Assembly (NCBI RefSeq): GCF_004010195.1
Contig: NC_057719.1
Coordinates: 48,267,071 to 48,331,070, forward strand
Source of the DNA: Chiloscyllium plagiosum
Lineage: Eukaryota
DNA length: 64,000 nt
Reading direction: 5' to 3'
In this document: positions 4,680 through 61,437 of the stretch, piece after piece
Position numbering within the stretch: position 1 is the stretch's first letter
How the letters are laid out: the number at the start of each line of letters is the position of its first letter
Notes under the pieces: generated by a model
Databases searched by the model: none
What the model was told of the DNA's origin: nothing
Seen by the model: the letters and a program-made list of their open reading frames with translations, nothing else
Program-made: the position numbers and the translations under genes

Positions 4680-4885
4680 GTAAACACAGTAAATGCTGGA
4701 GAAACTCAGTAGGTCTAGCAGCATTTGCGGAGATAAAAACAGAGCTAATGTTTCAAGTTCGGTGTGACTACTTCAGTTCCTGAAGAACAGTCATAATGTA
4801 CTCAAATTGTTAACTTTGTTTCTTTCTCCAAAGATGCTGCCAGACCTGTTGAGTATCTCCAGCATTCTCTGTGCTTGTTTCTGAT
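4680..4885. mobile_element. old palindromic PLE-type element with degenerate hammerhead
   Basis: Inverted arms (aatgctggagaaactcagtaggtctagcagcat / atgctgccagacctgttgagtatctccagcatt) centred on cttcag-ttc-ctgaaga. Confidence 0.65.
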
Positions 4886-7014
4886 GTCTTCTCAGCCTGC
4901 AGTTTTAACGGAATACTAATTTAATGATTACTACTAAACATATTACTCATCCCGAGTTGCTGATTTTATATTTGTAGAATGTCAGTTTTCTCAATTCAAA
5001 AAAAATGTGCATTTTAATTTTTTAATGGTTATGTTGATATCTTAACTTCTGACGGAATTGAAGAATGAATCTTTATTTCAATATATGAAAGCTTAATTTA
5101 AAAGTGAATGATAAAGTTATTTTAACTTGCTGCTTTGCCATCTAAGAGAATACTTTAATGTGATTAGCTGCTTACTCTGCTTGCTGATAGCATTACTGTT
5201 GGATGCTTGGAGATCATCTTGAATTGGTGCCACATTTAAAATGGCAACAGGAAAATGGAAATCCATGCCACAGAGATTGCAACTTACTTTAAGGCCAGGA
5301 ACAAGTGTCATTCATTTTGCCACTTTTCAAAATCTAAGTCATTTTACTCAGTGGGTTAATGGTATGGCTGTTATCATCTTTTAATGAATGGATAAATAAT
5401 ATACTGTTCTTCTAGTTAGCAATTTTGAAAATTGCTTGGTGGATCATAAAATGTTTGAAAACTGATGGTATATTTTAAAAGTTTTAACAGCAACAGACTA
5501 ACTTTTGCATCAGAGAAGGAATGATCTTAATTGTTTTGCAGAGTTGCAGTCTCGAATGTTCAGACACTAATATCTTTGTATGAGCCTTGGACATCATCCA
5601 TGCAGATCACAATGCATGACATGAGTAGAATGGAAAAAAACACAGTAAAATGGGGAGAGATCTTGTAGTGAAGGACATACGTCAGCGATTTTAGTAAAGC
5701 CAGACTTTCTTCAAGGGCATCAAATTAATTTGGCAACACAGTAGATTAGGAAGTAGGAATTCCTCCTTATGGCATTTCCAAGTAACACAACATGTTTGTG
5801 TGCCTGTTTTCTTTTGTGAAGAATTTAGAAACTGAACAAAGAAAAAACATATATTTATGAAGGTTAAAGGTTTTCTAAAATAATATTTTGAGGTTTGCTA
5901 TGCAATCGTGTTTCACAATGAATTTGCTTTGAGAAATTAATGTTGCCAATATATTTCTGCATTTTTGATTTATAGCTTGTTTAAATGCTTATGTAGCTCT
6001 TCATTCTTTTTAAATTGTAGATTGGAGGAAGGGATGGATATGAGAATACTGACACATTTTCTCATCTATACTGAGTCAATTATTTCCCTGAAGGCTCAGC
6101 AGTAACTAAATAACTGATGTTAAAATGATTTGTCTTGTTCTGGATCCACATGGAAAACAGCCCCAGCTAAAATGTTCTCACATATAAAATATATTTTATA
6201 CTTTGGTTCTTGTCCAGTGATGTAGTAGCCACATTTATGTAAAGTGCTTTTTAAAATTTTATACAGCTTTATTCCTCATTTAGCTTTATGTTGTTATTCT
6301 TTATTGATCTTAAGAACATGATGATCAGGAATAACTTGTATCAGAGCACAACTTTTTTTTTAACCATTTTCCTCTTATTTTCATTGCCTTTTCTTCACAC
6401 TGATATTGTTCATTTTGATTTCTTAAATATATCATTCTTTGAGATGTGGCATCACTGACATGTTTAGCATTTTCTATCTCTCGTGATCTTGACTATATGA
6501 GTGATGATATGCCACACTCTTGAACTGCTAAAGTTCATGTAATAAGTATAGTTCTACAATGCTGCTAGGTTGAATTTTTGACACAAGAACTGTGGAAAAA
6601 ATGACTATTTTACTAGGTAAGATGTGCAATCCTAGTACACTGGATGAATAAGGAACACACATTAAGCACCTTTTCATCCTTTGACCTGACTCTTCTGATA
6701 CTAATTTTACTTATCTCTCTGACCTGAATTAGTTTGGAAAATTTGGACTTCCAGTCAGGAAATATGCCAGTGTACTGTGTACTCCAATAGCATGACCATT
6801 TTATTTATCATAAAAGCAAAATTTAAGTCCCAGTATGAAAGTTGTACACGTCATATTACTTTTTAAAATATAGAATAAAAAGCATTTATAAGATATGTTT
6901 TTGTAACACTGTAACCAAAAATCTGAGGCATAGCAAGTTTAGCTATTTGTTATTATTTTCAAATAGATGAATAGGCTGATTGTCTTACTCTCACATGACA
7001 GGTTACAGTATGAT

Positions 7015-7146
7015 GATTCCTGATAAAGGGCTCCTGCCCAAAACGTCAATTTTCCTGCTCCTCGGTTGCTGCCTGACCTGCTGTGCTTTTCCACCATCAC
7101 TAATCTTGACTCTAATCTCTGGCATTTGCTGTCCTCACTTTCACCT
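7015..7146 (+). mobile_element. short PLE-derived element, family A (degenerate hammerhead)
   Basis: 15-bp TSD aggttacagtatgat at 7000-7014 and 7147-7161. Starts gattcctgataaagggctcctgcccaaaacgtc and ends ctcactttcacct. Confidence 0.85.
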
Positions 7147-8773
7147 AGGTTACAGTATGATACAACTCTCAATCTTTACTCAGTGTACTTGCTGTCTCAG
7201 TTATAACTACTCTCTCCAAGGTTAACACTGTACTCTTTTTTTTCTGTTCTAAATCCTTTAAATTACTTTTGGTCATATTGTCAAATATTAACTGAGGAGT
7301 TGTCATGACTTCAAAAGTTTTTTTTTCTCAGTTTTGATTTATTGTGTTGCCTCCTGGATCACATCTTCTCCAGTCTGTGGTTGGAATAGGCAAGCTAAGC
7401 TTTTTATCACTTCAAATAAACTAATACTTCTCTGGTCTTTGCTATTCATTTTATCAGCTTCTTGTTGATATTTTTAATTGAAAACATTTGGGAATGGACA
7501 TTTAAATTGCACAATTGTTTTAACATTCAAGAATGTGTGTCTGTACTTCCTTATATATAGGCAATACACCTCTTTTAATTTTTTTTTAAAAGAAAATGTA
7601 AAATAATTGAATGCTAAAAAACAAAGTATCACCAGCCAAACTATTCTTTTAGCTTACTTGATAATCATGTCAGCAAGCACCAAAGTCTGAATCTTCTCAA
7701 AGATGAAAGGATTCTGTACCTTAGCTAAAATGGTGACAGAACCCTGCATATGGAATGTCTGCCCCAATATTCATCACCCATTGTTTTTATCACAGAAGGG
7801 GAATGCATTTCATGGAGGCGCTGGCACCTTTCAAAATGCATCTGCCTTAAATCAGAAACCATTTCTGTTACTAGGATTTCTAAAGCAGGGCGCGTATTTA
7901 CAAATTGGAAGAAAAAGATCGAAAGCTACCAGAATTCCTTGGAGAGATCAAATGGCCTTTTGGACAAGTTACATTTCTCTTTGGGATTGTTAAGAGTCAA
8001 CATTAATGCACATAAAAAGTAATTAAGGTCTATAGAGCTACCAAATTGTTGAGTTATTTTTATCACCTGCTGTCTAAATTTCAAAACAAACACCAGCAAT
8101 TGAAAAAAACAGTTGTGCAATCTCACTCTTTCAGTAAAACATTTATTCCAAATTCCTTGTCTAATTTTTTTGAGACTACTCTATATTGATGTTCATTACT
8201 TAAATTCTTCTCCACAAGGGGAAGATTCCCCCTCTATTCAATCTTTCAAATCCTTCCTTAATTTTAAAGATTTCCAGTAAGTCACCTCTCAACTATCATT
8301 TTTCATGAGCGATCAGAGAGCCAATCCTTTTCTGATACGTATATTCATGCATTTCTAGTATCACTGTTTGAATTGTTATGTTTTCTCCAGTTCATTGATA
8401 TCCTTGTTCTGTTCATAATATTATACAGTCTCCAGTATGGTCTTGCCCAGGGTGGGGAAGCTTTTTACATTGGAAGGCCACGTTTCATTTAACTGAGATC
8501 CTATTCGGCAGCATGCTGAGAATTCAATATATACAACAAAATGTCCCATTTTTGTTAACATATTTACTAATTTTAACCAAAGCCTGCTATTATATGAGGA
8601 CTTTAAACAAAATAAAAATTCAGCCGACACATTTCTTTGTTTGTCAGAGTTGAACTAATAATAAGTGAAAAACTTAGACAACAAACCATTTAATGACTTG
8701 TTTGTGAGATAGGAATCAGGTATGTGGTTCCAACATCATTGACCGTAGCTTTAATTGTTCCTCTAGGTGAATA

Positions 8774-8886
8774 GTTGAAACTTTATTGCTGGAACAGCAC
8801 AGCAGGTCAGATGCTGCCTGACCTGCTGTGCTTTTCCAGCAATAAAGTTTCAACTTTGATCTCCAGCATCTGCAGACCTCACTTTC
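8774..8886. mobile_element. palindromic family A element nested in the hAT
   Basis: 15-bp TSD tcctctaggtgaata at 8759-8773 and 8887-8901. Inverted arms gttgaaactttattgctgga.../...tccagcaataaagtttcaac. It has no hammerhead core. Confidence 0.9.
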
Positions 8887-10324
8887 TCCTCTAGGTGAAT
8901 ATCCATCATCTGAGATCTCAAGTGGGTTTTAATTTGTGACACATATGAAAATGTTGATTCACAACAGTAGGTTGTGCCAAAACAAGACAGCATTAAGCAA
9001 GCATGTTTACGTAGACATGGGTATTCAATGGCATGTTTCCATATTTCAGTGGGATCCTTCTTAGCGTCAATTGGAGACTTCAGAATATTATCTTCTGAGA
9101 GCTCAATCAATTCCATCTGGAAGTCATCAGGTGCTTTGCAAACATCAACCAGGTGTGGTTGAAAGCTAGTTTCAGTCTGAGATCATGTTTCTCAAAATCT
9201 GCAAACCTTTCATTGTATTCTTCAGCCAGGGAGTCTAGAACAGCTGTGCATTGTTTCACGTTGCATTTCCTTAATGATTTGCGTATATCCTGTTCATTAA
9301 TTACCTTTGCCGGTTCAGGAAAGTGTTCAGCTGAAAGTTCCGATCTGGTAAGGAGAGTTTTGGATTTGCCTGGATTTTCAGCCACATATCATATATAGAT
9401 TTAGTTTTGCCTTGCAAAAACATATTCAGATCATTTTGCTTGGACATCATATCACAAAAAAATGCAGCATTTCTGCAGAAATCCTCTTTTGACAATTCAC
9501 ATGGTTCATTCACTTCCTCAAAAAAATCTTGTGATTTGCTTTCACAAAAAGTTTTACAAGTATTTGTCCTTGTGCCAACCAGTGCACTTTAGAATGATAT
9601 AGCAGATCCACACTGAATATTTCATTATCAAATTGAATCATGTTGCGAAATTGGTGATGCCATGAGGCATTTATTTGAATGCAGTTTGCAATACCTATAA
9701 GTTTCTTTAATGTGTAACTTAAAACAGTAGATTTGGCACAGATTATTTTGATACAAAAAACATTGAAAGGAAATCAAAATACCTGGATCTGGCAATTCTC
9801 TTTGGAGCAATGCAATAAATCCTTCACATTTTCCTCTCATGGGAGATGTGCTGTCTGTGCATTTCCTAAATTACATAAATTCAGCTTTGCTTCACACCAT
9901 TTTTCTTTGAAGGCAGTGAAGATGTCAATTCCACTTGACCTCGCCATTAAATTATCCAAAGCGAGTAACTCCTCATGGCAATGAAACTTCACAGTTGGAA
10001 CACAAATAAAAAATAACACCTGTGCTGAGTCAGTAATGACATTGGATTCATCCAACACAATTGAATAATAAGTACCTTTGCTTTGGCATATTGTATGAAG
10101 TTGTTCTGTTACATTGTGGGCTAATTCATGTTGCTGATCAGTTATGGTCCTTCTTGAAAGAAGTAGTTGTTTGTATTTATTAAACTTATTTGAATCTAAA
10201 CATCTTATAACTTCAACAATGCATTCTTTTATGATTTCCATAATGGCTTATCTCTTTTTCCAAGTATATATGCAACTTTATAATTTGCTTCAGTGATGTC
10301 AGTCCCTTGTCCTGACATTTTAAA

Positions 10325-10512
10325 GGAGAAAGTGAGGTCTGCAGATGCTGGAGATCAGAGCTGGAAATGTGTTGCTGGAAAAGCGCAGCAGGTCAGGCAG
10401 CATCCAGGGAACAGGAGAATCGACGTTTCGGGCTTATGCCCGAAACGTCGATTCTCCTGTTCCCTGGATGCTGCCTGACCTGCTGCGCTTTTCCAGCAAC
10501 ACCTTTCCAGCT
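10325..10512. mobile_element. palindromic family A element nested in the hAT
   Basis: 13-bp TSD ctgacattttaaa at 10312-10324 and 10513-10525. Near-perfect inverted repeat centred on cgggc-ttat-gcccg (loop 10434-10437). Confidence 0.92.
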
Positions 10513-10999
10513 CTGACATTTTAAATACTTGCTGCTGTTGCTGTTTTTGATCTTTAATTTTCTGAAGACTTTTGGAGCTCTTCCAGTTTAGCATATTTGT
10601 GGTCCTTATGAGTTGTATAATGTTAATATGCATTGTATTTCTTCACTGTTGTAATTATGGTGTCGCAGAGCAAACGTAATTTTATTTTCACAGCAACTAC
10701 GTAATACTGCAATTCCCATTCTTCATTGATTACTCTCTTCTCTTCCTTTAATGTTTTTTTTTAGTTTTTGACATGACTGGTGCCCAGATTTAAAAATGTG
10801 GATTTAGTATATGCAGACAAATAGGCAGAAGGTTGCAATTGGTAACCCCAAAAGGCTGCATGCGGCCTTAAGGCCACAGGATCCCCCTGCCTGGTCTAGC
10901 CAAAGTTCAGTACAGTTTTAGAGCAATTTTCTTATTTTCAAATGCATTCTTGCCAAACTAAAACACGCAGTTTCACAGGTTAAGCTGCTTTTTTTTGTT

Positions 11000-19194: not shown

Positions 19195-21245
19195 AAGATT
19201 GATTTATTTATTGTTATCACGTACTGAGACACAGTGAAAAGTGTTGTTTTGCAAACTGTACAGGCAGTTCACACCATACAAAGTGCATCAGGCTAGCAGA
19301 ACAGGGTGCAGAATACAGTGTTACAGCTGCAGAGAGGGTACAGAGAGAGAGTTCAGAATTAACATTTGAGAGGTCTGTTCAAAAGTCTGAAAACAGGGTA
19401 AGAAGCCTTTCTTGAATCGATCCGTACATATATTCAAACTTTTACATCTCTGCCTGACCAAAGAGGATGGAAGAGAATATAACTGGGTAGGAGGGGTCTT
19501 TGATTATGTTGGTTGCTTTTCCGAGGCAGCTGGAAGCATAGATAGAGTCAATGGATAGAGGGCTGGTTTGCTTGATAGACTGGGCTATGTTCACAACTCT
19601 CTATAGTTTCTTGCAGTCTTGGAAAGAGCAGTTGCCATATCAGCTGTGATGTATCCAGATGGATGCTTTCTAAGCTGTATCTATAAAAATTGCAAGAGGT
19701 CTTGTGGACATTCCAAATTTCCTTAGTTTTCTGAGGAAATAGAGATATTGTTGTGCTTTGTTGACCTTTCTGTTGATGTGGATGGACAAGGACCAATGCC
19801 TTGATCAGCTCCACCTCAGCATCATTGATGCAGACAGGGGTGTGCCCTCCACTTCCTGAAGTCACTGATCACCTCCTTCATTTTGTTGACGTTAATGCAG
19901 AGATTGTTGGCTTTACACCATGTCTCTCAGGACTCAATATCTTTCCTGTGTTCTGATTTGTCGTTGTTTGAGATACAATCTGGTAGTCTGTCAGCAAACT
20001 TGTAAATGGAGTTTTGGCAACATAGTTGTGAGTGTGTAAGGAGCACAGAAGGGGGCTGAGTACACAACCGTATGGGGCACCGGGTGTTGAGGATTATCAT
20101 GGAGGAGGTGTTGTCACCTGTTCTTATTGATTGCAGTGTAGGGTTCAGGAAGTTGAGGATTCAGTTACAGAGAGGGAAAGCCAAGAACTAAATTTCAGAT
20201 GAGTCTGCTTGGAATTATGGTGTTGAAGGTGGAATTGTAGTCAATATGTAGGAGCCTGACATAGGTATCCTTGTTATCTAGATTTTCCAGTGATGATTGT
20301 AGGGCCAGGGAGAAACTTGAAACCAGACCAGAAAGTGAGGGTGCAGATGCTGGAGATCACAGTCGAGAGTGTGGTGCTAGAAAAGCACAGCAGGTCAGGC
20401 AGCATCCGAGGAGCAGGAGAATCGACGTATCAGGCATAAGCCCTTTATCTGGAAGATTCCTGATGAAAGGCTTATACCTGAAGCATCAATTCTCCTGCTC
20501 CTCGGATGCTGCCTGACCTGCTGTGCTTTTCCAGCATCTCACTCTTGACTGTGATGTCCAGCATCTGCACCCTCACTTTCTCTTCCTTGAGACCAGACCA
20601 ACCACATGGACATCCAGCTTTGTGGCAAGGTTTACATGTCATAACAGGCTACAAAGCAACAGTGGGCAACAGAATCGTGGGCAACAGTACATCCCTACCC
20701 AATGAGCTCAATGCATTTTACACTCGCTTTGAACAGAGAGTCAGTGAAGCTATATTACCTATCACAACAGCCTTGAAAGTGGATCTTTTGCGCCTGTAGG
20801 TGAATTGCAGAGGATCAAGGCTATTTGGTAGGCTGGAGTTGATGTGAGCCATGACTATCTTTTTGAAGCACTTCATAGTTATGGATGTCACAGCCATTGG
20901 GTGGTAGTTATTGAGGCATGCCACATGATGTTTCTTTGGTACTGGAATGATGGTAGTCTTCTTGAAGCAGGTGGGAACTTCAAGGCGTAGTAAAGAGAGG
21001 TTAAAGATGTCTCCGGGATACTCCCATCAACCGGTCCACACAGGATCTGAGTGCATGGCCAGGGATTCAGTCTGGGCCAGTTGATTTCCATAGGTTCACA
21101 CTCAAAAAGGCTGGTCTAATATCTACAGCAGTGACCGTGGGTACAGGTACATCCACGGCTGTTGTGATTGGTGACATAGCTTCACTGACTTTCTGTTCAA
21201 AGCGAGTGTAAAATGCATTGAACTCATTGGGTAGAGATGTACTGC
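19195..21245 (-). mobile_element. Rex1/Babar-type LINE fragment with an internal inverted segment
   Basis: ACLNNYHPMAVTSITMKCF and LDPLQFTYR on the minus strand. LWQGL..ITGYK and LPNELNAFY on the + strand at about 20311-20775. Confidence 0.8.
20331..20585. mobile_element. palindromic family A element with two opposed degenerate hammerheads
   Basis: TSD cttgaaaccagacca (20316-20330) / cttgagaccagacca (20586-20600). Full inverted arms meeting at ...ctggaa-gattcctgatgaaagg. Confidence 0.9.
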
Positions 21246-26040: not shown

Positions 26041-26712
26041 TTTTTGAATGATCTGGCACAGGGAATGTGGCATCTTACTTGGCTGTCTCCAGATAATTCT
26101 TCCTGTCAGCACACTTTTCAAATGAGCAACCTCAAGAACTGGAATTGGAAGATTATGGTGAAGCAGATACAGATTGACTGGGTGAATAAGCAAGAGGTGG
26201 AAAACTGAGTCAAATATGGAAAGGTCAAATGGAGTAAAATGTTAGGAAATACGAGGTTATTCATTTGGCAACAAGAATAGAAAAATAGATGTGGTTTTTA
26301 AACAGTAAGCATCTATGAAATGCAATTTTACAGGACTTTGAGATCATATCTGGAATATTTAGTGAAGTATGTCTGTACATGAGGACATACGTACTTACCT
26401 TAGAGGTTTAATTAATTGATTTCTGGGTGGGAGAATTTCCAATGAGGACAGATTGAGTAGAATAAAACCATGTTCTCTTAAATTCAGAAAATGAAAGTTA
26501 GTCTCATTAAAATATGCAGATCCTTAGAGGTCTTCACAGCAAAGCTCTCGGGTTGCTTCCCGTGGCTGCTTGCATTTACCTGTTGTGGTTGCTTTACTGA
26601 TGAACCCAACATTTTCACTTCCTCAGTCATGCTATTTGAGGATTGCTGATTACTTAGTATGATCTATGCCACTCGTACTGATGAATTGAAGAATTGAAAT
26701 GTTCCCCTTGAA

Positions 26713-27640
26713 GTTTTGAAGATTTGGAGCTCAAGTTGAGGTTCTGGATGTAGGTTTGCTCGTTGAGCTGGAAGGTTCATTCCCAGATGTTTTGTCACCC
26801 TACTAGGTAACATCTTCAGTTAGCAATCATCCCAACGTCCACAAACGAAGCTGCATCAGAACATTATTTCAATAAGCCAATACACACTGCAGCACAGAGG
26901 AACTACGCAGAGCAGAGGAAAATCATCTATACCGTGTATTCAAAAAGAATGGGCACCCAATGAACACAGTCTGCCGATTTCTCAACAACAAACCCAAACA
27001 AGCAGACAAAACACATCCATAAACCCTAGCCACTCTCCCCTACATCAAAGACATCTCGGAAATGACTGCCAGACTGCTCAGACCCTTTGACATTATGGTA
27101 GCCCACAAGCCCACCAAAACACTAAAACAGCAGCTAATGAACTTGAAAGACCCTATACAGACAACAAACAAAACTAATGTCATTTATAAAATACCGTGCA
27201 AGAACTGTAACAAACTCTACATTGGACAAACAGGCAGGAAGCTAGCCACCAGGATACATGAACATCAACTAGCCACAAAATGACATGACCCTCTCTTACT
27301 AGTATCCTTACATACAGATAAAGAAGGACACCACTTCGACTGGGACAACACATCCTAGGACAAGCCAAACAGAGACATGCACGAGAATTCCTAGAAGCAT
27401 GGCATTCCAACCACAACTGTAACAACAAACAAATCAAGTTAGTCCCCATGTACCACCCCCTGAGAAAAAGAACCGGAAATGGCATCACCACAGGAAATGA
27501 CATCACCAACCCAACTATATAAATAGAAAGCAGGAATTATCAGCAATGCTTCACCCAGAGGCCAACCGAAGATGTTACCTAATAGGGTGACGAAACATCT
27601 GGAAATGAACCTTTCAGCTCAGCAAGCAAACCTACATCCA
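26713..27640 (+). mobile_element. 5'-truncated Penelope-like element with inverted pLTR
   Basis: GIY-YIG motif NVIYKIPCKNCNKLYIGQTGRKLATRIHEH. Inverted terminal copy at 26713-26820. 12-bp TSD gttccccttgaa (26701-26712) / gttcctcttgaa (27641-27652). Degenerate hammerheads at about 27565-27602 (+) and about 26783-26820 (-). Confidence 0.92.
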
Positions 27641-27754
27641 GTTCCTCTTGAACTTGCGTTGTATCATCAATGTTGAATCCACTCTTACAATTTGTTTGCC
27701 AGGTTGTGTTCCTTTATGAAAAACTTCAGTTAAAATAAAAATCAATGAGATCAA

Positions 27755-32329: not shown

Positions 32330-33745
32330 GAGAATTGGTTGACTAAGAGTAAACAGAGGGTTGGGATATAGGGGCGCATTTTCAGGATGAATAAGGTGTG
32401 GCGCTGGAAAAGCACAGCAGATCAGGCAGCATCCGAGGAGCAGGAGAGTCGACAGTTCAGGCATAAGCCCTTCATCAGGAATGTGGGGGAAAGGGGGTTG
32501 AGAGATAAATAGGAGGGTGGGGGTCAGGCTTGGAGGAAAGATAGCTGGGAAGGCAATAGGTGGATGCAGGTGGTGGGTGATTGTGATAGGTAGGTGGGGA
32601 AGGTGGAACAGATAGGTGGGAAGGAAGATGAACAGGTGGGACAAGTAAAGAAGGTGATAACGAGTTGGAGGGTTGGACCTGGGATGAGGTGAAGGGAGGG
32701 GAGGTCTGCATTCCTCACTTTCTCTCAGGCATTTTCAGGATGGCAACGAATAACTATGGAGTTCCACAGGGATCAGTGCTAGAGCCACAGTTATTTACAA
32801 AATACTTTAAAGCCTCGATGAGGAAAGTGAATGCACTATAGTCAAGTTTGTGGATTACGCAAAAGTAGGTGGAAAGGCAGGTGAGGGTGACACAAAGAAT
32901 CTGCAGAGTGGTATTAGCAGGTTCAGCACATGAGCATAACTTGACAGAAAAATATGCAATGTGGAAAAATGGGAGGCAATGCAAAAGAAAATGCAGGAGC
33001 TAAACATTATTTAAGTGGAGAAAGAATGAAGAAATCTACAGCACCCAGGGATTTAGGCATTCTCAGGCATAAATCACAAAATATTAGCATCCAGTAAAAT
33101 CTATAAGTTCAGCAGGTAATAAGAAAGAAAAGTAGAATGTTAGTCTTTACTTCAAAGAGAATGGAGAATAGGGAAACCTTGTTAAAATAATACAAGGCAT
33201 TAGATCTGGAATACTGTGAAAAGTTTTGGTTCACTTAGCTCAGAAAAGAGATTCTGACATGGGAGGCAGTTCAGAGAAGGTTCACTAGGTTGATCCCTGG
33301 TATGGAGGCATTGTCTTATGAGGAGAGGTTAAATCAATAGGATCTATACTCATTGGAGTTTAAAAGAATGGGAGGTGATTTGTTGAAACATGCAGGATTC
33401 TTAGGGGACTTGGTCGGGTAGATGCAGAGAAGTTGATTTGCCTTGTGAGAGAATTGAGGAACAGAGAGAATATCTTGAGGTAAGGGGTACCCCAGTGAAA
33501 ACAGAGACAAGGAGGATTTTCTTCTCTCAGAGGGTAATGAATCTATGGAATTTGTCTACAGAAGGCTAAAGTAACTGGGATGTTAAGTACATTCATGGTG
33601 AGATAGACATTTTTAATAAGTAAGGTGTTCAAAGATTATCAGGAAAAGGTATCTAAGTGGATTTGGAGTATCAGGTTGGCCATGATCTCAATAAATGGCA
33701 AGACAGACTCAATGGGCTGAATGGCTTACTGCTGTCTTATGGTCT
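32330..33745 (+). mobile_element. CR1 LINE ORF2/3' fragment, decayed
   Basis: [16 protein letters not shown] ggagttccacagggatcagtgcta and downstream CR1 3' end. Interrupted by a family A insertion. Confidence 0.8.
32390..32728 (-). mobile_element. family A PLE 3' end with pyrimidine-rich UTR and hammerhead remnant
   Basis: 14-bp TSD gcattttcaggatg at 32376-32389 and 32729-32742. Minus strand reads ...attcctgatgaagggcttatgcctgaactgtcgac. A short terminal piece is inverted. Confidence 0.85.
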
Positions 33746-35215: not shown

Positions 35216-35685
35216 ATCATCCTATGCTCACTGTTAGAATTTCAAATATTGTTTCAGCTGTCATGCCTGGGGCCATTTTTGTTGAAGGGTCTCAATTCCT
35301 TAAACCTCCTGATGATGAGATGCAGGTAGGTTTTCAGTAAGAAGTTCAGAATAATTATGTGAAAATGCAGTAATGTAATTACTCATAGACTACTGCAATT
35401 TTGTCTCCTTAGAATCTCTTTTTAGTCTTTGAAATATCCACAGTAACTCAAGGAAGAATACTGAAGCTTTAAGAGTGGTACAGTATACGAACAATCAACT
35501 AGATATTGATACAGACTTGAAAAATTGAAACTTTTCCATTAGACCAAGAAGTGTGCAAAATAATATGTTTAAGATTATGGATGTATTGGACAATGTGGTT
35601 AAAAGCAATCTTTTTAGCAGTTGATGGTGTATGAGAAGACATAGATACAAGGTTAAGATTTAGCTGAAGCACAATAAAAAGTTAT

Positions 35686-35880
35686 GATTTGGAGATGCCG
35701 GTGTTGGACTGGGGTGTACAAAGTTAAAAATCACACAACACCAGGTTATAGTCCAACAGGTTTAATTGGAAGCGCTAGCTTTCGGAGCTATCACCTGATG
35801 AAGGAGCGTCGCTCCGAAAGCTAGTATGCTTCCAATTAAACCTGTTGGACTATAGCCTGGTGTTGTGTGATATTTAACTA
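35686..35880. mobile_element. palindromic family B PLE-derived element
   Basis: 13-bp TSD aataaaaagttat at 35673-35685 and 35881-35893. Inverted arms agttaaaaatcacacaacaccagg...gctagctttcggagc / gctccgaaagctag...cctggtgttgtgtgatatttaact. Confidence 0.92.
35792..35826 (+). ncRNA. minimal type I hammerhead ribozyme motif (family B)
   Basis: cac CUGAUGA (35795-35801) a GGAGC-guc-GCUCC GAAA GC UA gua. The core is intact and stem I has one mismatch. Confidence 0.75.
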
Positions 35881-43592: not shown

Positions 43593-44814
43593 GTTTTGAC
43601 TTGAAGACATATGCTCCTGAATAGTTCATACAGGGTCTTTACAGCTTACAAGGAAACAGGACTCTGTGAGCACATCAGTCTTAGTTAAGTTCAAAACACA
43701 TCTAATAGGTGAAAAAGACTGAACTGCCAAACCATTCTATTCTGAGGGAATAATGATTAAAAGCAAAAAGAAGTTCACTGTAAAATCAATATAGAGGAAT
43801 TTAAGGGGTTATTAATATATAATTTAATGAATCAGAGATGTTTGGAATATAAATTTCAAAGGGAAATTAAATTTGTAGCTGTAAATTGATTGAAACTTTG
43901 GACTTCAGAAGTTGCCAGAATACACAATTAATTTACACGTCCAAAGTCTTTCCATGTATTCATACAAAGACAGATTTAGGAAAGTGAGAACTATAAAATG
44001 ACATATGGGCCCGTTTAGTTGGGGAATAGAAGGCAGCAAATGTGAGGAGAATTGCTCTGTCTTCATTAGAGATATGAATTATTCATTGTATTTCCCCAGA
44101 TCAAAGAAAAGTTTAAAAAGGCTGATAAACAAGGGAAGTACTTAAAGTATCTAATATACTGTACTTAGCACATCAAAGAAGAAGCTTTACAAATGTGGAT
44201 GATTGGTTTTACTCTGTATCCGGGACATCCCAGGCGTGCCAGTGCCATGAGGCTAAATTTTAGAGGATTTTGAATTGGGTTTATCTGTGTATTTTCTCGC
44301 AGAGAGAGAGAGAGAGAGAAAGCTGGCAACATTTGGGTGCATGCAAACAGATAAGATCAGTAGAAAAGCACTATCAGAAACAAGGGTTCTTTAAATGCTG
44401 GAATCATTAAAAAGAACACAATTAATCTTTTTGCTTGAGGTGCTTAAAAAGTCTTGAAAAATCACTGGCTAAATCTTGCCTAGTGAAAGGACCTTAAGAC
44501 ATCTCATATCTTGGAAAAAGCAGCAATACTGAGTAGAATTAAAAGTAAATTCCTATGAGGTGAGGCACAACTTAATTTGGTTGGAAGAAGTCAAGGAATT
44601 CCTGAGTTCCAGTAACGTAATGGATGGAAATATAAACAGAGCAGAAAGTGATTTTTTGAGATTGTTGACTTTAACATCTAAGTGTTTACAAAATGTGTAA
44701 GTGTTAATAGTATTTGCTTTGCTTAACTCCTATGCAATAAACGTTTTTGCTTGAAATATGAAATTTTGTGTTATAATTTTATGAATGAATATTTGAAATT
44801 ATTTGAATGAATAT

Positions 44815-45705
44815 TAGGCAAGCTGAGCAGGAGTGGACATGGGACTGCTGGGTAAGTGAGGCTGTATATTTGGGTGGTTGCTTTACCCGAAACACTATTC
44901 GGATAGTGTCTCCCACCCGTCCTCTTCCTCTAACCAAAAAAAGGTTCTGTGTGCTGGATTGAAAAGGTGACTAGTCTTTTATTTCCTCTCTTTTAGTTTT
45001 TGGTAGGCTTACTGGGAATTTAGAATAGTTGGAATGGAGGTTAGGGTGGTTTGAAGTTCCTCCTGCAGAATGTGGAAGGTAAGGGTCACTACAAGGTCCC
45101 TGTTGACTGTATCTGCGGGAAGTGCACCCACCTTCAGCTCCTCGAAAACTGCATTAGGGAACTGGAGCTGGAGCTAGATGAACTTTGGATCATTCAGGAG
45201 GTGGAGGGGGTGATTGAAAGGAGGTAGTCACACCTCAGGTAAAAGAAGAAGGTAGATGGGTTACCGTCAGGGAACAGAAAGGGAACCGCGGGCATTGCAG
45301 AGATCCCCTGTGGCGTTCCCCTCAATACTGTTTGGATACTGTTGGGGGGGGGGGGAATGACTTACCAGGGGTGAGCAATGTTGCGCAGGTCTCTGGCACA
45401 GAGTCTGTCCCTGTTGCTCAGAGGGAAGGGGGAAGAGGAGCAGACAATTAGTCATTGGGGACTCCATAGTTAAGGGTACAGACAGGAGGTTCTGTGGGAA
45501 TGAGAGAGATTCACGGTTGGAGTGTTGCCTCCCAGGTGCCACGATTCATGATGTCTCTGATCGTGTTTTTGGGATCCTTGTGGGGGTGGAGGGAGCAGCC
45601 CCAAGTCATTGTTCACATAGACACCAATGACACAGGTAGGAAGAGAGATGGGGATTTAAAGCTGAGTTATTATCTCTGGTTTGTTACCCATGCCACATGC
45701 TAGCG

Positions 45706-45754
<49 letters not shown>

Positions 45755-50525: not shown

Positions 50526-50605
50526 AGGGCTTTTGCCCGAAACGTCGATTTTGCCTGTCCTCGGATGCTGCCTGAATTGCTGTGCTCTTCCAGCACCACT
50601 GATCC
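50526..50605 (+). mobile_element. 80-bp family A element starting at hammerhead stem II
   Basis: 12-bp TSD ataatctgcaat at 50514-50525 and 50606-50617. Begins agggcttttgcccgaaacgtcg. Confidence 0.88.
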
Positions 50606-51969
50606 ATAATCTGCAATTGTCTGGGAGGCTGGGTTTCCCTTGAGGGCACAAATGTTTTATTTTGTTTTATTTCATTGCTCTTATGTTTTGTTAGCTGCAA
50701 TATTTTTTACATTTTCATATTAAACTGCTGGTATCGTGATCCTTGCGTGGGTCATTCTGAAACACCCCTTGCTTGTTCAACATGTACTGCTCAGACAATG
50801 TTGCAGATTCAATGCCAAGAGGAACACATCACGACCTGCATATTCCTGTGACCTCTGGCAGCAGGATGGAAAAATTATGCAGGCCCTTGGAACTAGCAAG
50901 TCCATATGCATACAACATTGGGAGCCACGTGAACCTTAAATTTGGCAGGGCTACACTCATTATTCATTGGCACATTTGCCAAATGGGGACAATGCCTTGC
51001 AAAGAATTAATCCAGACACCAGTAAGACATATAATGACCCCAGTTGCAGATGTTGCTGTGATAACAGTTTCAGTTGTTTAACAATCAGGTGAACACTACA
51101 AGTTGGGTTGCCAGCTGTCCTCCAAGACCTCAACTTTATACATAATGCCCAAGGTTCTATCCTACATATATCAGAATACTCAAGGATGCCACTGTTGATA
51201 ATGTAACATGATAAATGGTATAACCATGACCATTTATCCAAGACTGACTGGGAATGAAGTGCAACACCCTTACGTGCATATGACAACTGCAGCAGTATCA
51301 TGAAAATTAACATACATGAATAAAGTGAAATGAAACATAGCAATAATTTGAATATGTGAAACTCAAATAATGCTACACATTATTCGTTGCCACCTTCATT
51401 CCTTTATAAGTTTTAAATTTATTTTTTCTATTTCCATTGCTATGTTTAGTTGCTGGCTCAACATCGACAATTGCAGTGGTAACAGCTGCTAAGTGATATA
51501 CCCGTTGTTGATGAATTTGGTGGTTGTTGTCAGGTGGTCTGAGATCTAGAGGGCTGCAGCCTGAGGATGGTCTGATGCAGAGATGTAGATAATGCTCCTC
51601 AGCTGGAATTGCTTGTAGGGCTGTGGTCACTGTCAGAGGGCAGATGGAGTGTCTGAGAATTCCTGGCACTTCTCCTCTATGACAGTGCACCTGGCACTTC
51701 TGTGACTGCTTGAGGAGAAGGTGCTCTTGGACTGAACTACAGGGGCTTCATCCCGATCTCACTTAGCCTTTGATACTCTGTGCCAAACTTAGTGTGATGG
51801 AATGCAGGTCTGAATACATATGACAGCCACTGAGCATTCTGCTCTACCATGTCTTGCATGGTGGTTCCAATTTCCCCGTGGGAATTCCGTGTACCAAAGT
51901 CATGACTCTATGGATAAAGTGAACAGACTTCTGGATGTAAGTTTGCTCCCTGAGTTGGAAGATTCGTTT

Positions 51970-52009
51970 TCAAACGTTTCGTCACCATACTAGGTAACAT
52001 CATCAGTGA
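51970..52009 (-). ncRNA. minimal type I hammerhead ribozyme motif in the Penelope pLTR (family C)
   Basis: Minus strand: uca CUGAUGA u GUUACC-uaguau-GGUGAC GAAA CG UU uga. Stem I UCA/UGA, intact core, GUU triplet. Confidence 0.8.
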
Positions 52010-52705
52010 GCCTTTCGTGAAGCATTGGTGTTAGTGACCCCCTTTCTATTTATGTGTTTAGGTTTCCTTGGGTTGGTGATGTCATTTGCTGTTCTTTTGC
52101 TCAGAGGGTGGTAAACGGGGTCCATGTCGATGTGTTTGTTGATAGAGTTCTGGTTGGAATGTTGGTGCGACTAAATACAACCGGGAAATTTCGCACCAAA
52201 TAAGTTTACTCACTAAATTAACAGAATATGAATGGACAGACACAGTACAACGAACCATAGACATTAGACAGTGACAAACACAGAAAGTGAAAAAATTAGA
52301 CCTGCAGAGAAAACTAGACAAACTCACACAAAATAACAACACAGACAATGCAGAAGTATGGATAAAAAAACTTATCTGACCGAACCTTAACAAACGGAAA
52401 AATCCATCTTAGTAAGAGGATTAAATTACAACTTCCAGGATGCGGACAAGAAAGATTTCTTTGCAGCATTAGAAACAGCGCTGAAAGACAATGAACTCAG
52501 AAGGAACCCAGCAAACCATTAGATAGTCGGTCGACCAACATTAAGCAGGAAAAAGGAAGGAAACACACTCAATACACCAAAAAGGAAAGCACTAGAAGGA
52601 CTCAAAAAACATAAAAACATTGTTATCCTACCTGCAGATAAAGGACGCTTGACAGTCATTTTAAACCAAACAGACCACATTGAGAAAGTAAACACACTGC
52701 TTGCA

Positions 52706-53140
52706 TGATTCGGAGATGCCGGTGTTGGACTGGGATGTGTAAATCACAAAACCCTTTTTTTTAAAGTTGCATTCTCAGGTTAGCTGTTAATAATGGTGAT
52801 AGCTAGACAATATGTTGAAGGTGTTAGCCCCCTGTGTTCTCTGTCTATGACCTGATGTTTAGATTGATTCCAATCTAAAAAGTGAAATAACAGAGTTTTA
52901 CATAGTTTCACTTCTTTCATGAATTTATCACTGTATTCTAACAGATGAAAGGCTTAACAGACAATCAATTCTTCAATGTATAATTTTAGTTACATCACAC
53001 TGCAAATTTTTGCTATAAATTCTGTGTTACGATCGAGCCCTCCACAATCACCTGATGAAGGAGCGTCACTCCGAAAGCTAGTGTGCTTCCAATTAAACCT
53101 GTTGGACTATAACCTGGTGTTGTGTGATTTTTAACTTTGT
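52706..53140 (+). mobile_element. family B PLE 3' end nested in the Penelope ORF
   Basis: 12-bp TSD acactgcttgca at 52694-52705 and 53141-53152. A short inverted terminus is followed by about 300 bp of UTR and the hammerhead. Confidence 0.9.
53049..53083 (+). ncRNA. minimal type I hammerhead ribozyme motif (family B)
   Basis: CAC CUGAUGA (53052-53058) a GGAG-cguca-CUCC GAAA GC UA GUG. Stem I CAC/GUG and palindromic stem III AGCU. Confidence 0.8.
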
Positions 53141-56100
53141 ACACTGCTTGCAGATACTGACACTTACCAACTGGTGGCGATAGACCAACCCACAACTAGA
53201 GAACTAAATTACAGCCCTACTCAAAAAAAATTTCAGAAATCTTGAGAATTAAATAAGACAGACTTCCAAAAAATGAAACCAGATGGATCCAACACACCGC
53301 ACTTCTACGGATTACCCAAAATTCATAAACCAGGAGCCCTCCCTCAGACCATTAGTCTTGGTACCTAGAACAGCAATGTATAGATTAGCTAAGGAGCTAC
53401 ACCAAAGACTAAAACTTTGTAGAAGACTCACATCACTCCATCCACTCCACCCAAGAATTCCTGAACAACATCAAAGACACCAAGATAGAAGAGGATGAAA
53501 TGATGGTCTACTTTGACGTAACAGCCCTGTTCACATCCGTCAACATCAACCTGGCCAAAGAAATACTGACTACACTATTAGAACCAAAGACACATACACC
53601 AAACACCACCAACTTCATCAGCAAGGACAATATCATCAAGCTAGTGGACCTATGCCTTACTACCCACTTCACTTTCAATAACAAAACCTACAGACAAACC
53701 AATGGGACGCCCATGGGATATCTGCACTTAGCAGAGGCAGTAGTGTAGCAATTCAAACAAACAGCTCTGCCAACCATCCAACCCATACTTTGAGTCCGCT
53801 ACGTGAATGGCACTTTTGTCATCACTAAAGAAAACGAATTAGAGGATACCTTCAACACCATTAATAATTTCCTTACTGGCATAAAATTCACTAATGAGGA
53901 GGAAAACAACAACAAACTGCCATTCCTAGATGTCACAGTAGATCGAACAGCCAATGGGGAACTTAAAACCAGTGTCTACAGGAAAACAATACATCCGGAC
54001 CAAATACTGAACTACAGAAGCAATCATCCAAACACCCACAAACAAAGCTGCATTAGAACATTATTTCAATGAGCCATCACACACTGCAGCATAGAGGAAC
54101 TATGAAGAGCAGAGGAAAATCACGTATACAGTGTATTCAAAAAGAATGGGTACCCAATGAAAACGGTCCGCCGATTTCTCAGCACCAAACCCAAACAAGC
54201 AGACAAAATACATCCAGAAACCTTAGCCACTCTCTCCTACATCAAAGACATCTCGGAAATGACTGCCAGACTACTCAGACCTCTTGGCATCATGGTAGCC
54301 CACAAACCCACCAACACACTAAAACAGCAGCTAATGAACTTGAAAGACCCCATACAGACAAAAAGCTAAACTAATGTCATTTACAAAATATCTTGCAAGA
54401 ACTGTAACAAACACTACATTGGACAAACTGGCAGAAAACTAACCACCAAGATACATGAACATCAACTAGCCACAAAAAGACATGGCGCACTATCACTAGT
54501 ATCCTTACATATGGATGAGGAAGGACACCACTTCGACTGGGACAACACATTCAACTTAGGATAAGCCAGAGACACACACAAGAAATACTAGAAGCATGGC
54601 ATTCCAACTGGAACTCTATCAACAAATACATCATCGTGGGCTCTGTTTATCAACCTCTGAGAAAAAGAACAGAAAATGACATCACCACCACAAATGACAT
54701 CACCAATCCAAGGAAACCTAAACACATAAATAGATAGCGGATCACTAACACCAGTGCTTCACCAGAGTCTCACTAATGAAGTTACCTAGTATAGTGACGA
54801 AACATCTGAAAATGAATCTTCCAGCTGAGTGAGCAAATTTACATCCAGAACCACAACCTAAACTACAAACTTCTCAAAACTGCTGAACAGACTTCTCCAG
54901 CCTTCAATCAAGTCTGTGCGCTACCTCTGGTATTTCTATCTTATGTCTCCCTGACTGTTTATTCACTTCTATCAGGTTTCTAATGGACAAGCTTAAAGGC
55001 TTGTCATCTGCGTGGACTCAGTAGGTGTTGGTCACTAGCAATCATTTGAATATCAAAGGCCTCGGTTATCATACATTTCATCAACTGTGGACACGTGTCT
55101 GCATTGAGCTTATCAGGCTGTGACTCTTCAGCTAACCTACAGTGACTACCCATCGAGCTGAATATCATTACGGTTGACAGTACAGGCATCCTCAGCTGTG
55201 CTGGTGGTGGCAAAAAATGGAATAAATTCGTTTAGCCTTTTTTTCATGGTCTCCATTCCCAAACCAGCAGTAAAGAACAAAACCAATTAGCTCATGGTTA
55301 AAAAAAATGCCTTTGCCCACCAACTTTTCTTGTATTATGTCACAGCACAAGACTGGAGGTATCCTCTTGGGACATTATGGATACGTGAGCCTCTCCATTC
55401 TATGCACTCTTGGCCACGGTCTTCCCTCATCACTTCCTCAGTTGGAGTGAGGAGTCTGAGATTAGAGAACTGTCCTCCAGTTTTCTCTCTCTCATTGATT
55501 GAGTTCCTTTGTCTTGCACAAAAACAGAAGGGTTTAGTGTTAGACAGAAGAGTCTATCATTGATAAATGAGCATGCATTTTATGACATGCGACCTCCTAT
55601 TCCTACCCTAGTAAGTGATCCACACATACATACTGTTCTGCAGCTGGTTACATTGCAGAGCATTAAATGGCCTTCAGATTCAATCCACTTTTCCCATCTG
55701 ATGCACATGTCCACAACCTTAGATCCTGTCTTCCACATCTCTGCACTTGCATGTCCACATTGATTGTTACCCTATGGCTGCCAACTTGTTGTCCAGATAA
55801 TTTACCTTATTCTTTACCTTATCCTCACCCAGGTTCTTCAGTGGGCCTTCTTTTAATCCTGCGACCAAACACAATGCAAGATTCTGCTTCTGCAATATAA
55901 TGATGGTACAATAGATGTTTTATCGCACAGAAGTAATTTTTGCTCAGGTACTTTATGCTGACAGGTCAATTAATTGATATCATGTAACATTTACTGACCT
56001 TCCTTAGTGGCAGCAAGAGACCCTGAGTTAATTAAATAAACCATTTAAGTGGTGGTGATCTGTATATGGAGAAAGCAACGATTACCGTCTGTTCTCACTT

Positions 56101-57812: not shown

Positions 57813-57846
57813 TTCCTGATGAAGGGCTTTTGCCCGAAACGTCGAT
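57813..57846 (+). ncRNA. minimal type I hammerhead ribozyme motif (family A)
   Basis: uuc CUGAUGA (57816-57822) a GGGC-uuuu-GCCC GAAA CG UC gau. Intact core, GUC triplet, very short stem I. Confidence 0.72.
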
Positions 57847-57940
57847 TTCGAAGCTCCTTGGATGCTGCCTGAACTGCTCTGCTCTTCCAGCACCACTAAT
57901 CCAGAATCTGGTTGCCAGCATCTGCCGTCATTGTTTTTAC
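57813..57940 (+). mobile_element. family A element inserted in CR1 ORF2
   Basis: Interrupts CR1 between LERLG and TLEFRR. No TSD seen. Confidence 0.85.
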
Positions 57941-58461: not shown

Positions 58462-58593
58462 AGGCAAAAGTGGATACTGCAGATACTGGAGATTAGAGTC
58501 AAGATTAAATGGCGCTGGAAAAGCACACCAGGTCAGACAGCATCCAAGGAACAGGAAAATCGACATTTCAGGCAAAAACTCTTCATCAGGAAT
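58462..58593 (-). mobile_element. family A element (degenerate hammerhead)
   Basis: Minus strand starts attcctgatgaagagtttttgcctgaaatgtcg. Colinear with 7015-7146. Confidence 0.82.
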
Positions 58594-59454
58594 ACTTTCC
58601 CTATTACCTGCCTAATTGGATGCTAGCTTTTTGTGATTCATGGGCAAGAACTTCCAAATCTGTTATGTAGCTTTCTGCAGTCTTTCACTATTTAAATAAT
58701 ATTCAGTTCCTTTATTCTTCCTGCCAAAGTGTAAAACCTCAATTTTCCCTGCATTATATTCTATCTGCCAAGATTTTGCCTAGTGCATAACCTGTCTATA
58801 TCCCTCCACAGACTCTTTGTGTCATTCACGCCACTTATGTTCCCATCTTTTTTTTTGTTATCTGTAAATTTGGCTATAATACATTCACTTTCCTCATCCA
58901 AGTTGTAATATATATTGTAAATAATTGTGGCCCAAGCACTGATCCCTGTGGCACTCCACTAGTTTCAGGTGAAAATGATCCCCTTATCCCAACTCTCTAT
59001 CTTCTCTTAGTTAGCCAATTCTTTATCCATGCTAACATACTGCCTCAAGCATCACAAGCTCTTATTAAGTAGCCTATTGTGTGTTAACTTATCAAACACT
59101 TTCTGAAAATCCAAACAAATTACATCCACTGCTTCATCTTTATCTATCTTATTTGTTACCTCCTGAAAGAATTCTAGTAAATTTGTAAGACAGAATTTTC
59201 CCTTCATGAAGTCATGCTGACTCTGCTCGATCATATTATGCATTTTTAAATATTCAGCTATTATATCCTTTATAATAGACATTAAGCTAACTGGCCTATA
59301 GTTACCTGTTTTTGTTGTCTCCTTCACTTTTTAACATAAAGTTGATAAATTGGCAGTTTTCCAATCCTCTGGGACTTTTCCAGAATCTAAGGATTTCTGG
59401 AAGATTATTACCATTGCATTTACTCTCTATCACTACTTCCTTTAATGTCTTAGT

Positions 59455-59940
59455 TTGCCTGAATCCCGTTTGCTTGGATTGGTACAGCTCCAACAACACT
59501 AAAGAAGCTTGATGCTATTCAGGCCAAAGCACTGGTGTGATTGGCACCAAATCCACAAGCAAATACTCCTTTTACCACCAAGGCTCAGTTGTAACATTGT
59601 GTATTATCTACAAGATATCTGCAGAAATTTACCAAAGATCCTCAGATTGCACCTTCCAAACCCACAACTCCTTCCATCTGGAAGGACAAGGGTAACAGAT
59701 ACGTCGGAACACCATCACCTACACATTCTCCTCCAAGCCACTCAGCCACTGAGTTCCTTCACTGTCGCTGGGTGAAAATCTTGAAATTCCCTTTCTAAGG
59801 GCATTGTGGGTCAACCTACAGCATATGGACTGCAGCAGTTCAAGAAGGCAGCTCACTACCACCTTCTCATGTGCAACTAGGGACTGGCTATAAATGTTGG
59901 ACAACCAGCAATACTCATGTCCCACAAGTAAATAAAAAAT
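59455..59940 (+). mobile_element. CR1/L2-group LINE 3' fragment
   Basis: Paralogous to the 3' half of 22185-23070. A-rich tail. Confidence 0.75.
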
Positions 59941-61247
59941 CTGCATCCATCAGGTCTAGTGGACTTCTTTAGCCCAATTAGTTTTGTGAGCTCTTTTTCT
60001 CTAGTGATAGTTGTGGCACTTATTTCCTCTCCTTTTGCCCCTTGATACTTTAATAATTTTGGAATGCTAATAACGTCTTCTAATGTGAATGCTGATGGAA
60101 CTCCTCTGCCATGTACTAATTTCCCAGCCTCAGTCTCTTAGGGGTCTATGTTCACTTTGGCTTCTCTCTTCCTTTCTACATATTTAAAGCTCTTGCAGTC
60201 GGTCTTGATATTACTTACAAGTTTCCCTTTAATGTTTATCTTCTCCCCTTTTATTAGCTTTTGGTCATCCTTTGTTGGATTCTAACACTTTTCCAATCCT
60301 CTGGCTTACCACTAATCTTTGCCAATTTGCCATTGTATGTTTTTCTTTCAATTTGATACTATCCATGTTTTTCTGAGTTTGGTGTGAATTGTGTCATTAC
60401 TTCTTAGTTTTCTAAACACCAAGAAAATGGATTTTACAAAAGCCATTTGCGTTAACATTGTACCTATATTTCTAAGACTTCTGAAATGTTTTTTTCAGAT
60501 CACTATCTTTCTTCATAGTTACTGTATTTTTTTCTGTGTAGGAGGAATGTGTGCAATTTACCAATTTTGGTGCTTGAAAATTGCTATCAGTGACACTTAT
60601 GGTGGTTGGGGATAAATCTAAGAGAATGAAGGTGTGAAAGATCTATGATAATTATGTTATGGGAGGGATGAGAGACGTGGGGGAGAGAGCATTTGGGAAG
60701 GGGTGAAAGATCTTGGATTGTAGGGTTGGTGTAGGGTTGTAGGGTTGGTGTAGGTGACAAGTTGATAGACCGCTAAGAGTAGAGGAGATGCGAAAATGAG
60801 TTATTCTATAGTTTTTTTTTTGAGTAAAAAACACTTACCTTTCCACTGGATTTTGCAAAACAGAAATCAAGACTCAAAGGTGAAGCAATTAGGTAATGCC
60901 CATTATTAAAAAAAGCTGTGGTGGAGCAGTTGTTAGCGTTATGTTACAGCTCCAAGGGAGATATTGTAGCAGGACTCCAAAATCTCAGTTGGAGGCCTCA
61001 CAGTTTGGGAAGTCTTGCTTTAGGATGAATGTGATTCATTGAACTTATTAGGAAGCATGAAGCTCATTATTCAGTCTGGTTCAGTGCGAGAACAAATCAT
61101 TTCTTGATGACCTGGACCTTTTGCATCATATTTCTAAAACATTGATTAAAGCAGTTAATAAGCCATTACTAAAATCAAGCCTCTGCTTGAACAATTTGTG
61201 TCTTCTGTTTTTGACTGTATGGTATATAGAATTACATCATATACTTA

Positions 61248-61437
61248 TGATTTGGAGTTGCCGGTGTTGGACTGGGGTGTACAAAGTTAAAAATCACACA
61301 CCACCAGGTTATAGTCCAACAGGTTTAATTGGAAGCACTAGCTTTTGGAGTGCTGCCTGATGAAGGAGTAGCGCTTTGAAAGCTAGTGCTTCCAATTAAA
61401 CCTGTTGGACTATAACCTGGTGTTGTGTGATTTTTAA
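61248..61437. mobile_element. palindromic family B element with hammerhead core
   Basis: TSD catcatatactta (61235-61247) / cattatatattta (61438-61450). CTGATGA at 61357-61363 followed by GAAAGCTAGTG. Confidence 0.9.

Follow-up and report, generated by a model that had tools for sequence, protein, structure and literature searches.

Minimal hammerhead ribozyme motifs in the terminal repeats of three Penelope-like element families of Chiloscyllium plagiosum and the likely origin of their short insertions

Introduction

Minimal hammerhead ribozyme motifs are known from Penelope-like elements (PLEs); Cervera and de la Pena (2014, PMC4209133) described them together with their features and their abundance as single truncated copies. 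Monomeric forms failed to cleave in vitro in that study, and a review presents minimal hammerheads as cleaving as dimers (PMC6765202). For Poseidon PAc of Anolis, cleavage was found to be protein-assisted and dispensable for insertion in vitro (Frangieh et al. 2024, PMC11167929). Non-LTR retrozymes have been reported in one chondrichthyan (Li et al. 2026, 10.64898/2026.07.22.740005). In the present study, we analysed three families of hammerhead-bearing repeats, named A, B and C, in a repeat-rich part of the 3.56 Gb genome of Chiloscyllium plagiosum, i.e. 64,000 nucleotides of contig NC_057719.1 (positions 48,267,071 to 48,331,070), hereafter referred to as the window.

An original prediction, made from the sequence of the window alone, had assigned these repeats to a partner system of short retrozyme- or SINE-like (short interspersed element-like) units lacking open reading frames (ORFs) and mobilised by PLE enzymes. 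The best explanation of our data, which we hold with considerable confidence, is that minimal type I hammerheads lie in the pseudo-long terminal repeats (pLTRs) of three PLE families, whose own enzymes likely generated the short copies as stubs. This is a known arrangement at an unusually high density, and the interest is carried by a pile-up of 5' ends with a cap-like G and by an internal poly(A) site. Both the role of the hammerhead and the regeneration of the pLTR, for which no obvious mechanism is known according to Schostak et al. (2008, PMC2377424), are open questions in the field.

Results and discussion

Hammerhead motifs in the window and in the genome

All positions such as -8 or +84 are counted from C3 of the hammerhead core. 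The motif descriptor (CUGANGA, an optional extra nucleotide, a stem II of at least 4 bp, GAAA, UH and a stem I of at least 2 bp) returned exactly the five minimal hammerheads named in the original prediction, four on the forward and one on the reverse strand (Table 1), against a mean of 0.083 and a maximum of 1 in the 60 first-order Markov sequences that defined the chance level. The extra nucleotide after A9 and the loop-less palindromic stem III (AGCU or ACGU), both predicted, are present in all five. Stem I comprises only 2-3 bp in each of them, and in the 61357 copy stem II is weakened to three G-U pairs. The covariation claimed for the stems is confined to the comparison between the three families. 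Inside families A and B, stem II varies mainly by CpG-type decay, and the subfamily variants are located in loop 2 and at N7. An Rfam search of the window gave no hammerhead family at E<=5, and its matches to mir-302, MIR845 and mir-680, all below the gathering scores, were dismissed as fold-back artefacts. Judged by their sequence features, the motifs are real minimal type I hammerhead ribozyme sequences of the kind already described (PMC4209133).

Two observations bear on cleavage. The hammerhead dimer, when forced, folds at -17.7 kcal/mol versus a cofold minimum of -39.3 kcal/mol, i.e. the active dimer is not favoured, and no RNA end at the UH site was present among those listed from our RNA evidence, a single poly(A) single-cell run of a coded organism, possibly another species, which constitutes a weak test. 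In the predicted folds of the copies at 35795 and 61357 the antisense arm of the fold-back pairs with part of the motif (with its 3' part at 35795). The pairing of fold-backs with part of the motif, together with an active dimer that is not the predicted minimum, fits the low, protein-assisted activity reported in PMC4209133 and PMC11167929.

Exact patterns recovered 13,810 B copies, 14,530 A copies and 105 copies of the window's C variant from the genome, with none for the reversed controls. A blind sample of 60 stretches at round coordinates (582,393 bases) contained 87 A, 30 B and 3 C repeat arms and 37 descriptor matches, i.e. about 64 motifs per Mb, which extrapolates to some 10^5 motifs genome-wide. 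ACGU or AGCU was found in 27 of the 37, most of the others being CpG decay products.

Linkage of the repeats to PLE coding sequences

Linkage to coding sequence indicates that all three families are pLTRs of PLEs encoding a reverse transcriptase (RT) and a GIY-YIG endonuclease (EN). At 25 of the top 30 loci, drawn from 28,979 candidates for the B RT C-terminal query, a co-oriented B repeat lies 0.8-1.4 kb downstream of the RT C-terminus; of the remaining five, one is the query locus itself, two lie at contig ends and two at gaps. An A-type repeat follows GIY-YIG at 27 of 30 loci (from a GIY-YIG query with 182,644 candidates), in 20 of them at 188-189 nt. These loci represent the young A2 subfamily, and the window's A1 follows GIY-YIG in at least 4 of 30 pattern loci. 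The C repeat was found 168-215 nt behind GIY-YIG at 11 of 20 loci, and cross-family controls gave 5/30 and 1/30. The proposal that PLE RT/GIY-YIG is the mobilising enzyme is supported.

Pfam recognised RVT_1 in all four scanned ORFs (E 1e-8 to 3e-6, three at or above the cut-off). Matches to GIY-YIG, all below the cut-off, were obtained for the two A ORFs and for one C piece of the window (E 2e-4 to 9e-4, the C piece at 9e-4). It reported no GIY-YIG for the B ORFs, though these align to A. The window's C ORF was scanned as five pieces, of which four, among them those of the RT, gave no Pfam match. The ORFs at the PLE loci reach 893 aa, and all copies seen are broken or partial. Neptune elements differ from Penelope/Poseidon elements in a Zn-finger linker, CX2-5CxxC, between RT and EN (Craig et al. 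2021, PMC8557442). As a CX4CxxC linker is present in A and B, whose proteins share 32-34% identity, and absent in C, we assign A and B to the Neptune type and C to the Poseidon type on this linker criterion.

The gross structure agrees with that of EN-containing (EN+) PLEs, with a pLTR, an inverted 5' copy, a tail of 30-40 bp, a target duplication and a single ORF with RT and C-terminal GIY-YIG. In a near-complete B element (locus L161), an inverted pLTR with tail is followed by the ATG of the ORF, which the tail abuts, the RT and a 3' pLTR. Genomic 3' ends fall into two clusters about 40 nt apart, at +84 and +122 in B, which define the PLE tail. Inverted pairs 1.4-2.9 kb apart were considered as full-length copies and rejected, as they mostly spanned assembly gaps. 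Such gaps often lie inside young PLE copies, between inverted pLTRs (L101, L102, L031, L116), and intact PLE copies are probably under-assembled.

The short copies

With natural copies as blastn references, 8 A, 3 B and 2 C insertions were identified in the window, and two older relics (a fold-back at about 4690-4860 and the fragment 62446-62472) bring the census to 15, in good agreement with the predicted dense population of about 14 insertions in 64 kb. Most insertions have target duplications of 9-15 bp. The description of the elements as ORF-less does not extend to the C insertions, which contain relics of GIY-YIG (26712-27651) or of RT and GIY-YIG (51929-54883).

The idea of a separate retrozyme- or SINE-like partner system was not sustained. 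The repeats are linked to coding PLEs, and short and long copies share subfamilies. When about 110 copies per family were compared over 60 nt, an approach with low power for small lineages, all nine A and most B subfamily keys with at least three members held both short and long copies, and the nearest neighbours of short copies were short, equal or long in 7, 35 and 9 cases in A and in 6, 30 and 4 cases in B. A source lineage of their own, apart from the autonomous partner, as expected of a SINE, was not observed among these copies, and no tRNA-like match, i.e. no tRNA-type Pol III head, was found on any element. The window contains no tandem array of these units and hence lacks the tandem units, each with a hammerhead, of a retrozyme; only partial tandems occur among the fetched loci (L159, L034). 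One backward RNA joint, seen in 3 reads, is explained equally well by a partial tandem. Because of the shared subfamilies, the lack of tandem arrays and tRNA heads and the two 3' end clusters, we interpret the stubs as products of PLE insertion; the short pieces without ORFs would most likely be dead, 5'-short or fold-back insertions made by the PLEs' own enzymes.

With CpG sites excluded, private changes are evenly distributed between core and flank, both in A (15/510 versus 77/1939, p 0.36) and in B (9/170 versus 40/663, p 0.86), and the shared changes of A avoid the core (0/510 versus 116/1939, p 2e-12). Both core and stem II are kept in only 29 of 51 copies of A and in 6 of 22 of B. Because private changes are even and shared changes avoid the core, we conclude from these counts that the ribozyme is maintained in source elements, whereas it decays neutrally in individual copies. 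Against this stands the result for B, in which the deficit of shared changes in the core (0/170 versus 9/663) is not significant (p 0.22).

Putative cap site

Genomic 5' ends accumulate just upstream of the core, within 9 nt in 30 of 75 A copies and within 11 nt in 29 of 67 B copies, so that about 40% of intact copies begin within about 10 nt of it; in the blind sample, the interval from -9 to +5 contains the start of 26 of 87 A and 11 of 30 B arms. Copies begin with an A (-4 in A, -8 in B) whose context resembles the initiator (Inr) consensus. Directly before it, G accounts for 1856 of 2557 non-reference bases in B (background 26%); one base further downstream, it accounts for 32 of the 100 first listed by hand count (background 29%). 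In A, G constitutes 7645 of 12,526 purines before the start A (background 41%), the neighbouring-base control being available for B alone. At the G-start loci, the target duplication or the inverted arm usually shares this G; it is clearly extra in locus L318 and in the window's 7015 copy.

The common start point likely marks the 5' start of the element's RNA, and the extra G may be read as a copied m7G cap by analogy with L1, copies of which carry a cap-derived G. Several points speak against this reading. At loci not selected for that base, G-starts number only 7 of 73 in B and 8 of 94 in A. Among the G-start loci, 25 of 30 in B and 16 of 30 in A are fold-backs, whose G may derive from the inverted arm. 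Solo A copies with a clear target duplication mostly hold the G inside the duplication. A splice acceptor was rejected as the cause of the pile-up, as there is no AG at this place and no shared upstream exon.

In family C (loci L081-L100), the sequence TCATCC at about -14 resembles an initiator and is preceded, at a distance of about 30 nt, by a TATA-like A/T box; 4 of 20 copies have a 5' junction near TCATCC, with no evident G.

RNA ends and the poly(A) site of family B

On B, 775 of 2523 reads carry an A-tail at one of two sites, +57 (354) or +60 (421), 12-15 nt past ATTAAA; the reads are mostly of the sense strand and comprise several sequence variants. No genomic B copy has that A-run, which rules out priming at a poly(A) tail for B. 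Since read depth continues through the UH site, these RNAs are uncleaved there. In B, the putative cap site at -8 is followed by the core (0-28), the cleavage site (+29), the poly(A) site (+57 to +60), the two 3' ends (+84, +122) and the ATG. The ATTAAA/AATAAA signal of the B pLTR can be seen at locus L015:1542-1562, with equivalents near 35837, 53094 and 61397 in the window. With more than 10^5 arms in the genome, the B repeat may supply many poly(A) signals and end host transcripts.

The generality of such a site is limited by the remaining data. The poly(A) evidence concerns B only, from the one run, and may reflect host read-through RNA. No A-tail was present in A2 among the six loose ends listed, with 73 more outside the list, the A2 reads showed no pile-up of starts or ends, and the A1 reference lacks AATAAA/ATTAAA.

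Alternative explanations

The 5' pile-up might instead be a truncation hot spot, caused by RT stalling or fold-back joining, with the long copies derived from read-through tandem transcripts, as proposed for the anole. This would account for the predominance of fold-back junctions in the B G-start set, for the many junctions without G and for the existence of partial tandems (L159). However, stalling at the hammerhead predicts stops at its 3' side (+30 to +35) and not past the whole motif, the neighbouring position in the same fold-back context has no G excess, and the start base matches the initiator consensus; we regard a hot spot as rather unlikely. A different possibility is that the short units propagate themselves as non-autonomous, SINE- or retrozyme-like elements, transcribed and copied in trans by the PLE protein. 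They are very numerous and extend from the putative transcription start as far as the RT start sites, a cap G would be mimicked if a short master element had a templated G, pLTRs are able to act in trans (Arkhipova et al. 2013, PMC3846280), and non-autonomous PLE derivatives are known, e.g. MRC1 (PMC8557442) and vertebrate retrozymes (10.64898/2026.07.22.740005). On the other hand, short copies fall under the same subfamily keys as long ones and are not preferentially closest to one another, two unrelated families show the G excess, each in both of its variants, and RT initiation in the anole element required ORF sequence beyond the start sites (PMC11167929), which the stubs do not contain. 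Independent propagation of the short units thus seems improbable.

That individual window copies are functional ribozymes maintained for the host is hardly credible, even though the core is intact in five window motifs and the repeats occur in poly(A) RNA reads of a related run. Private changes strike core and flank at equal rates, only some copies (29 of 51 in A, 6 of 22 in B) retain core and stem II, and monomers of the kind failed to cleave in vitro (PMC4209133). No close co-oriented dimer partner is available in the window, where the nearest B pair is 8.3 kb apart, and no host exon is evident among window ORFs of at least 120 aa.

Proposed mechanism

Based on our observations, we suggest that the pLTR would start a capped RNA at the initiator-like A, which precedes the hammerhead core by 4 nt in family A and by 8 nt in family B. 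After a nick of the target by the endonuclease, reverse transcription would begin internally at one of two sites, in B +84 or +122, the latter abutting the ORF start codon. Run-off to the capped end would yield stubs of 95-130 bp, which are very common and would often end in a G copied from the cap; this G may be extra, or it may pair with a G in the target or in the inverted arm. As the B poly(A) site lies upstream of both RT start sites, these would occur only in the 5' pLTR of a polyadenylated unit transcript, and longer copies would depend on one of three routes, namely a jump to the 3' repeat, a circle generated by the hammerhead (as suggested in PMC4209133) or a read-through tandem RNA (a multi-copy read-through mRNA was proposed by the authors of the PAc study, PMC11167929). 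Our data do not separate these three models, which are distinguishable and testable. The hammerhead itself would matter only in source elements, in which the two copies per transcript could pair via the palindrome, probably with protein help.

This order of sites suggests an LTR-like layout, in which reverse transcription would start near the capped 5' end and the stubs would be strong-stop-like products. We tentatively put forward, as an idea that may well prove wrong, that the Neptune pLTR resembles a true LTR. The segment from cap site through hammerhead to poly(A) site would form a terminally redundant 'R' of about 70 nt, the RT start sites would lie downstream of it in a 'U5'-like, 5'-only stretch, the hundreds of thousands of stubs would be integrated strong-stop cDNAs, and full-length copying would proceed via strand transfer through R or a hammerhead-closed circle. 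If true, this would explain both the regeneration of the pLTR and the placement of the hammerhead.

Insertions and other repeats in the window

The insertions are listed in Table 1. PLE families nest in each other, B in the RT of C (window 52705-53140) and A in a B pLTR (loci L161:2676-2886 and L001).

Table 1. PLE-derived insertions in the window (positions of the window; TD, target duplication)
Position	Strand	Element	Features
4690..4860	.	Older diverged A-like fold-back	Decayed core; found by eye, no reference match by blastn
7015..7146	+	A, solo pLTR	Starts at -4 A; core decayed; 15-bp TD, one extra G between it and -4 A
8773..8898	.	A, fold-back stub without hammerhead	13-bp TD
10325..10516	.	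A, near-perfect fold-back	Both arms start in stem II, hence CUGANGA missing
20330..20582	.	A, fold-back	Two arms, each beginning at about -4 and with a decayed core; 9-bp TD
26712..27651	+	C, 5'-truncated copy	Linker and GIY-YIG relic between an inverted, tailed pLTR and a second pLTR, whose core is decayed
32398..32730	-	A, copy with about 230 nt of 3' untranslated region (UTR)	14-bp TD
35684..35879	+	B, fold-back stub	Hammerhead C3 35795; inverted pLTR with tail, sense pLTR from -7; 13-bp TD
50526..50613	+	A, stub starting inside stem II	12-bp TD
51929..54883	+	C, decayed near full-length Poseidon-type PLE, about 3 kb	Inverted pLTR 51929-52161 with intact minus-strand hammerhead, C3 52006; broken RT about 52520-54070; GIY-YIG 54370-54561; 3' pLTR (mutated core) and tail; 13-bp TD
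52705..53140	+	B, insertion	Intact hammerhead C3 53052; tail and 3' UTR piece in inverted orientation, followed by a 3' UTR piece and the pLTR in sense; interrupts family C RT; 12-bp TD
57813..57940	+	A (Neptune-type PLE), solo pLTR and 3' tail	Intact hammerhead C3 57816, predicted cleavage after 57843; inserted in CR1 RT frame
58476..58594	-	A, solo pLTR from -5	Stem II decayed
61247..61438	+	B, fold-back stub	Hammerhead C3 61357, stem II weakened
62446..62472		Older relic fragment	Counted with the older relics

The window's ORFs of at least 120 aa we take to be L1-like and CR1-like relics and DNA-transposon-like pieces, or else they are uninformative. An L1-like ORF2 relic, as we assume from its appearance, occupies 222-2923 and contains two assembly gaps, and the ORF pieces 9837-10247 and 14233-15349 are presumably DNA-transposon relics, hAT-like and Tigger/DDE-like, respectively. 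Two inverted CR1-like copies (41256-48000) form a multi-kb inverted repeat, 82-88% complementary. A tRNA-like Rfam match at 33948-34021 (32.1 bits, cut-off 29), not called by ARAGORN, is probably a SINE head or a pseudogene.

Comparison with known systems

The core, the extra nucleotide, the palindromic stem III and the pLTR location all correspond to the minimal hammerheads of PLEs (PMC4209133). The density of about 64 motifs per Mb, on the other hand, is far above that given there, i.e. about 4,000 per genome in the coelacanth and about 9,000 in Xenopus, and A and B have a short stem II of 4-5 bp. The available text of that paper contains neither data on cartilaginous fishes nor a mapping of 5' ends. 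As far as checked, the three families are new members of a described kind. The literature searched mentions neither the cap-G pile-up nor the internal poly(A) site, a scope that leaves out subscription papers, supplements, Repbase and Dfam.

In their gross features, our elements do not differ in kind from Neptune and the Penelope/Poseidon EN+ PLEs, with which they share 5' truncation, the inverted 5' copy, target duplications, a 30-40 bp tail at one end, the C-terminal GIY-YIG and, in Neptune, the Zn-finger linker (PMC8557442, PMC3846280). Like the non-LTR retrozymes, which have type I hammerheads akin to those of PLE pLTRs and many monomers, the repeats include many monomers; unlike them, the window's copies form no tandem hammerhead units, being dispersed monomers or head-to-head fold-backs tied to coding PLEs (10.64898/2026.07.22.740005).

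A parallel for the ends is PAc, in which two RT start sites about 40 nt apart likewise define the tail at the pLTR-ORF junction and the hammerhead is located upstream of them (PMC11167929). However, the PAc ORF starts in stem II, whereas that of B starts at the tail end, and the available PAc text contains no mapped cap, poly(A) site or 5' stub pile-up. An internal TATA-less promoter with an Inr in the pLTR, starting upstream of the hammerhead, is known from Penelope of Drosophila virilis (PMC2377424). There, an intron separates start and hammerhead, whereas the start inferred here lies 4-8 nt before the core. The genomic fossils studied here assign a likely cap site, the cleavage site, a poly(A) site and the two RT start sites to a span of 130 nt.

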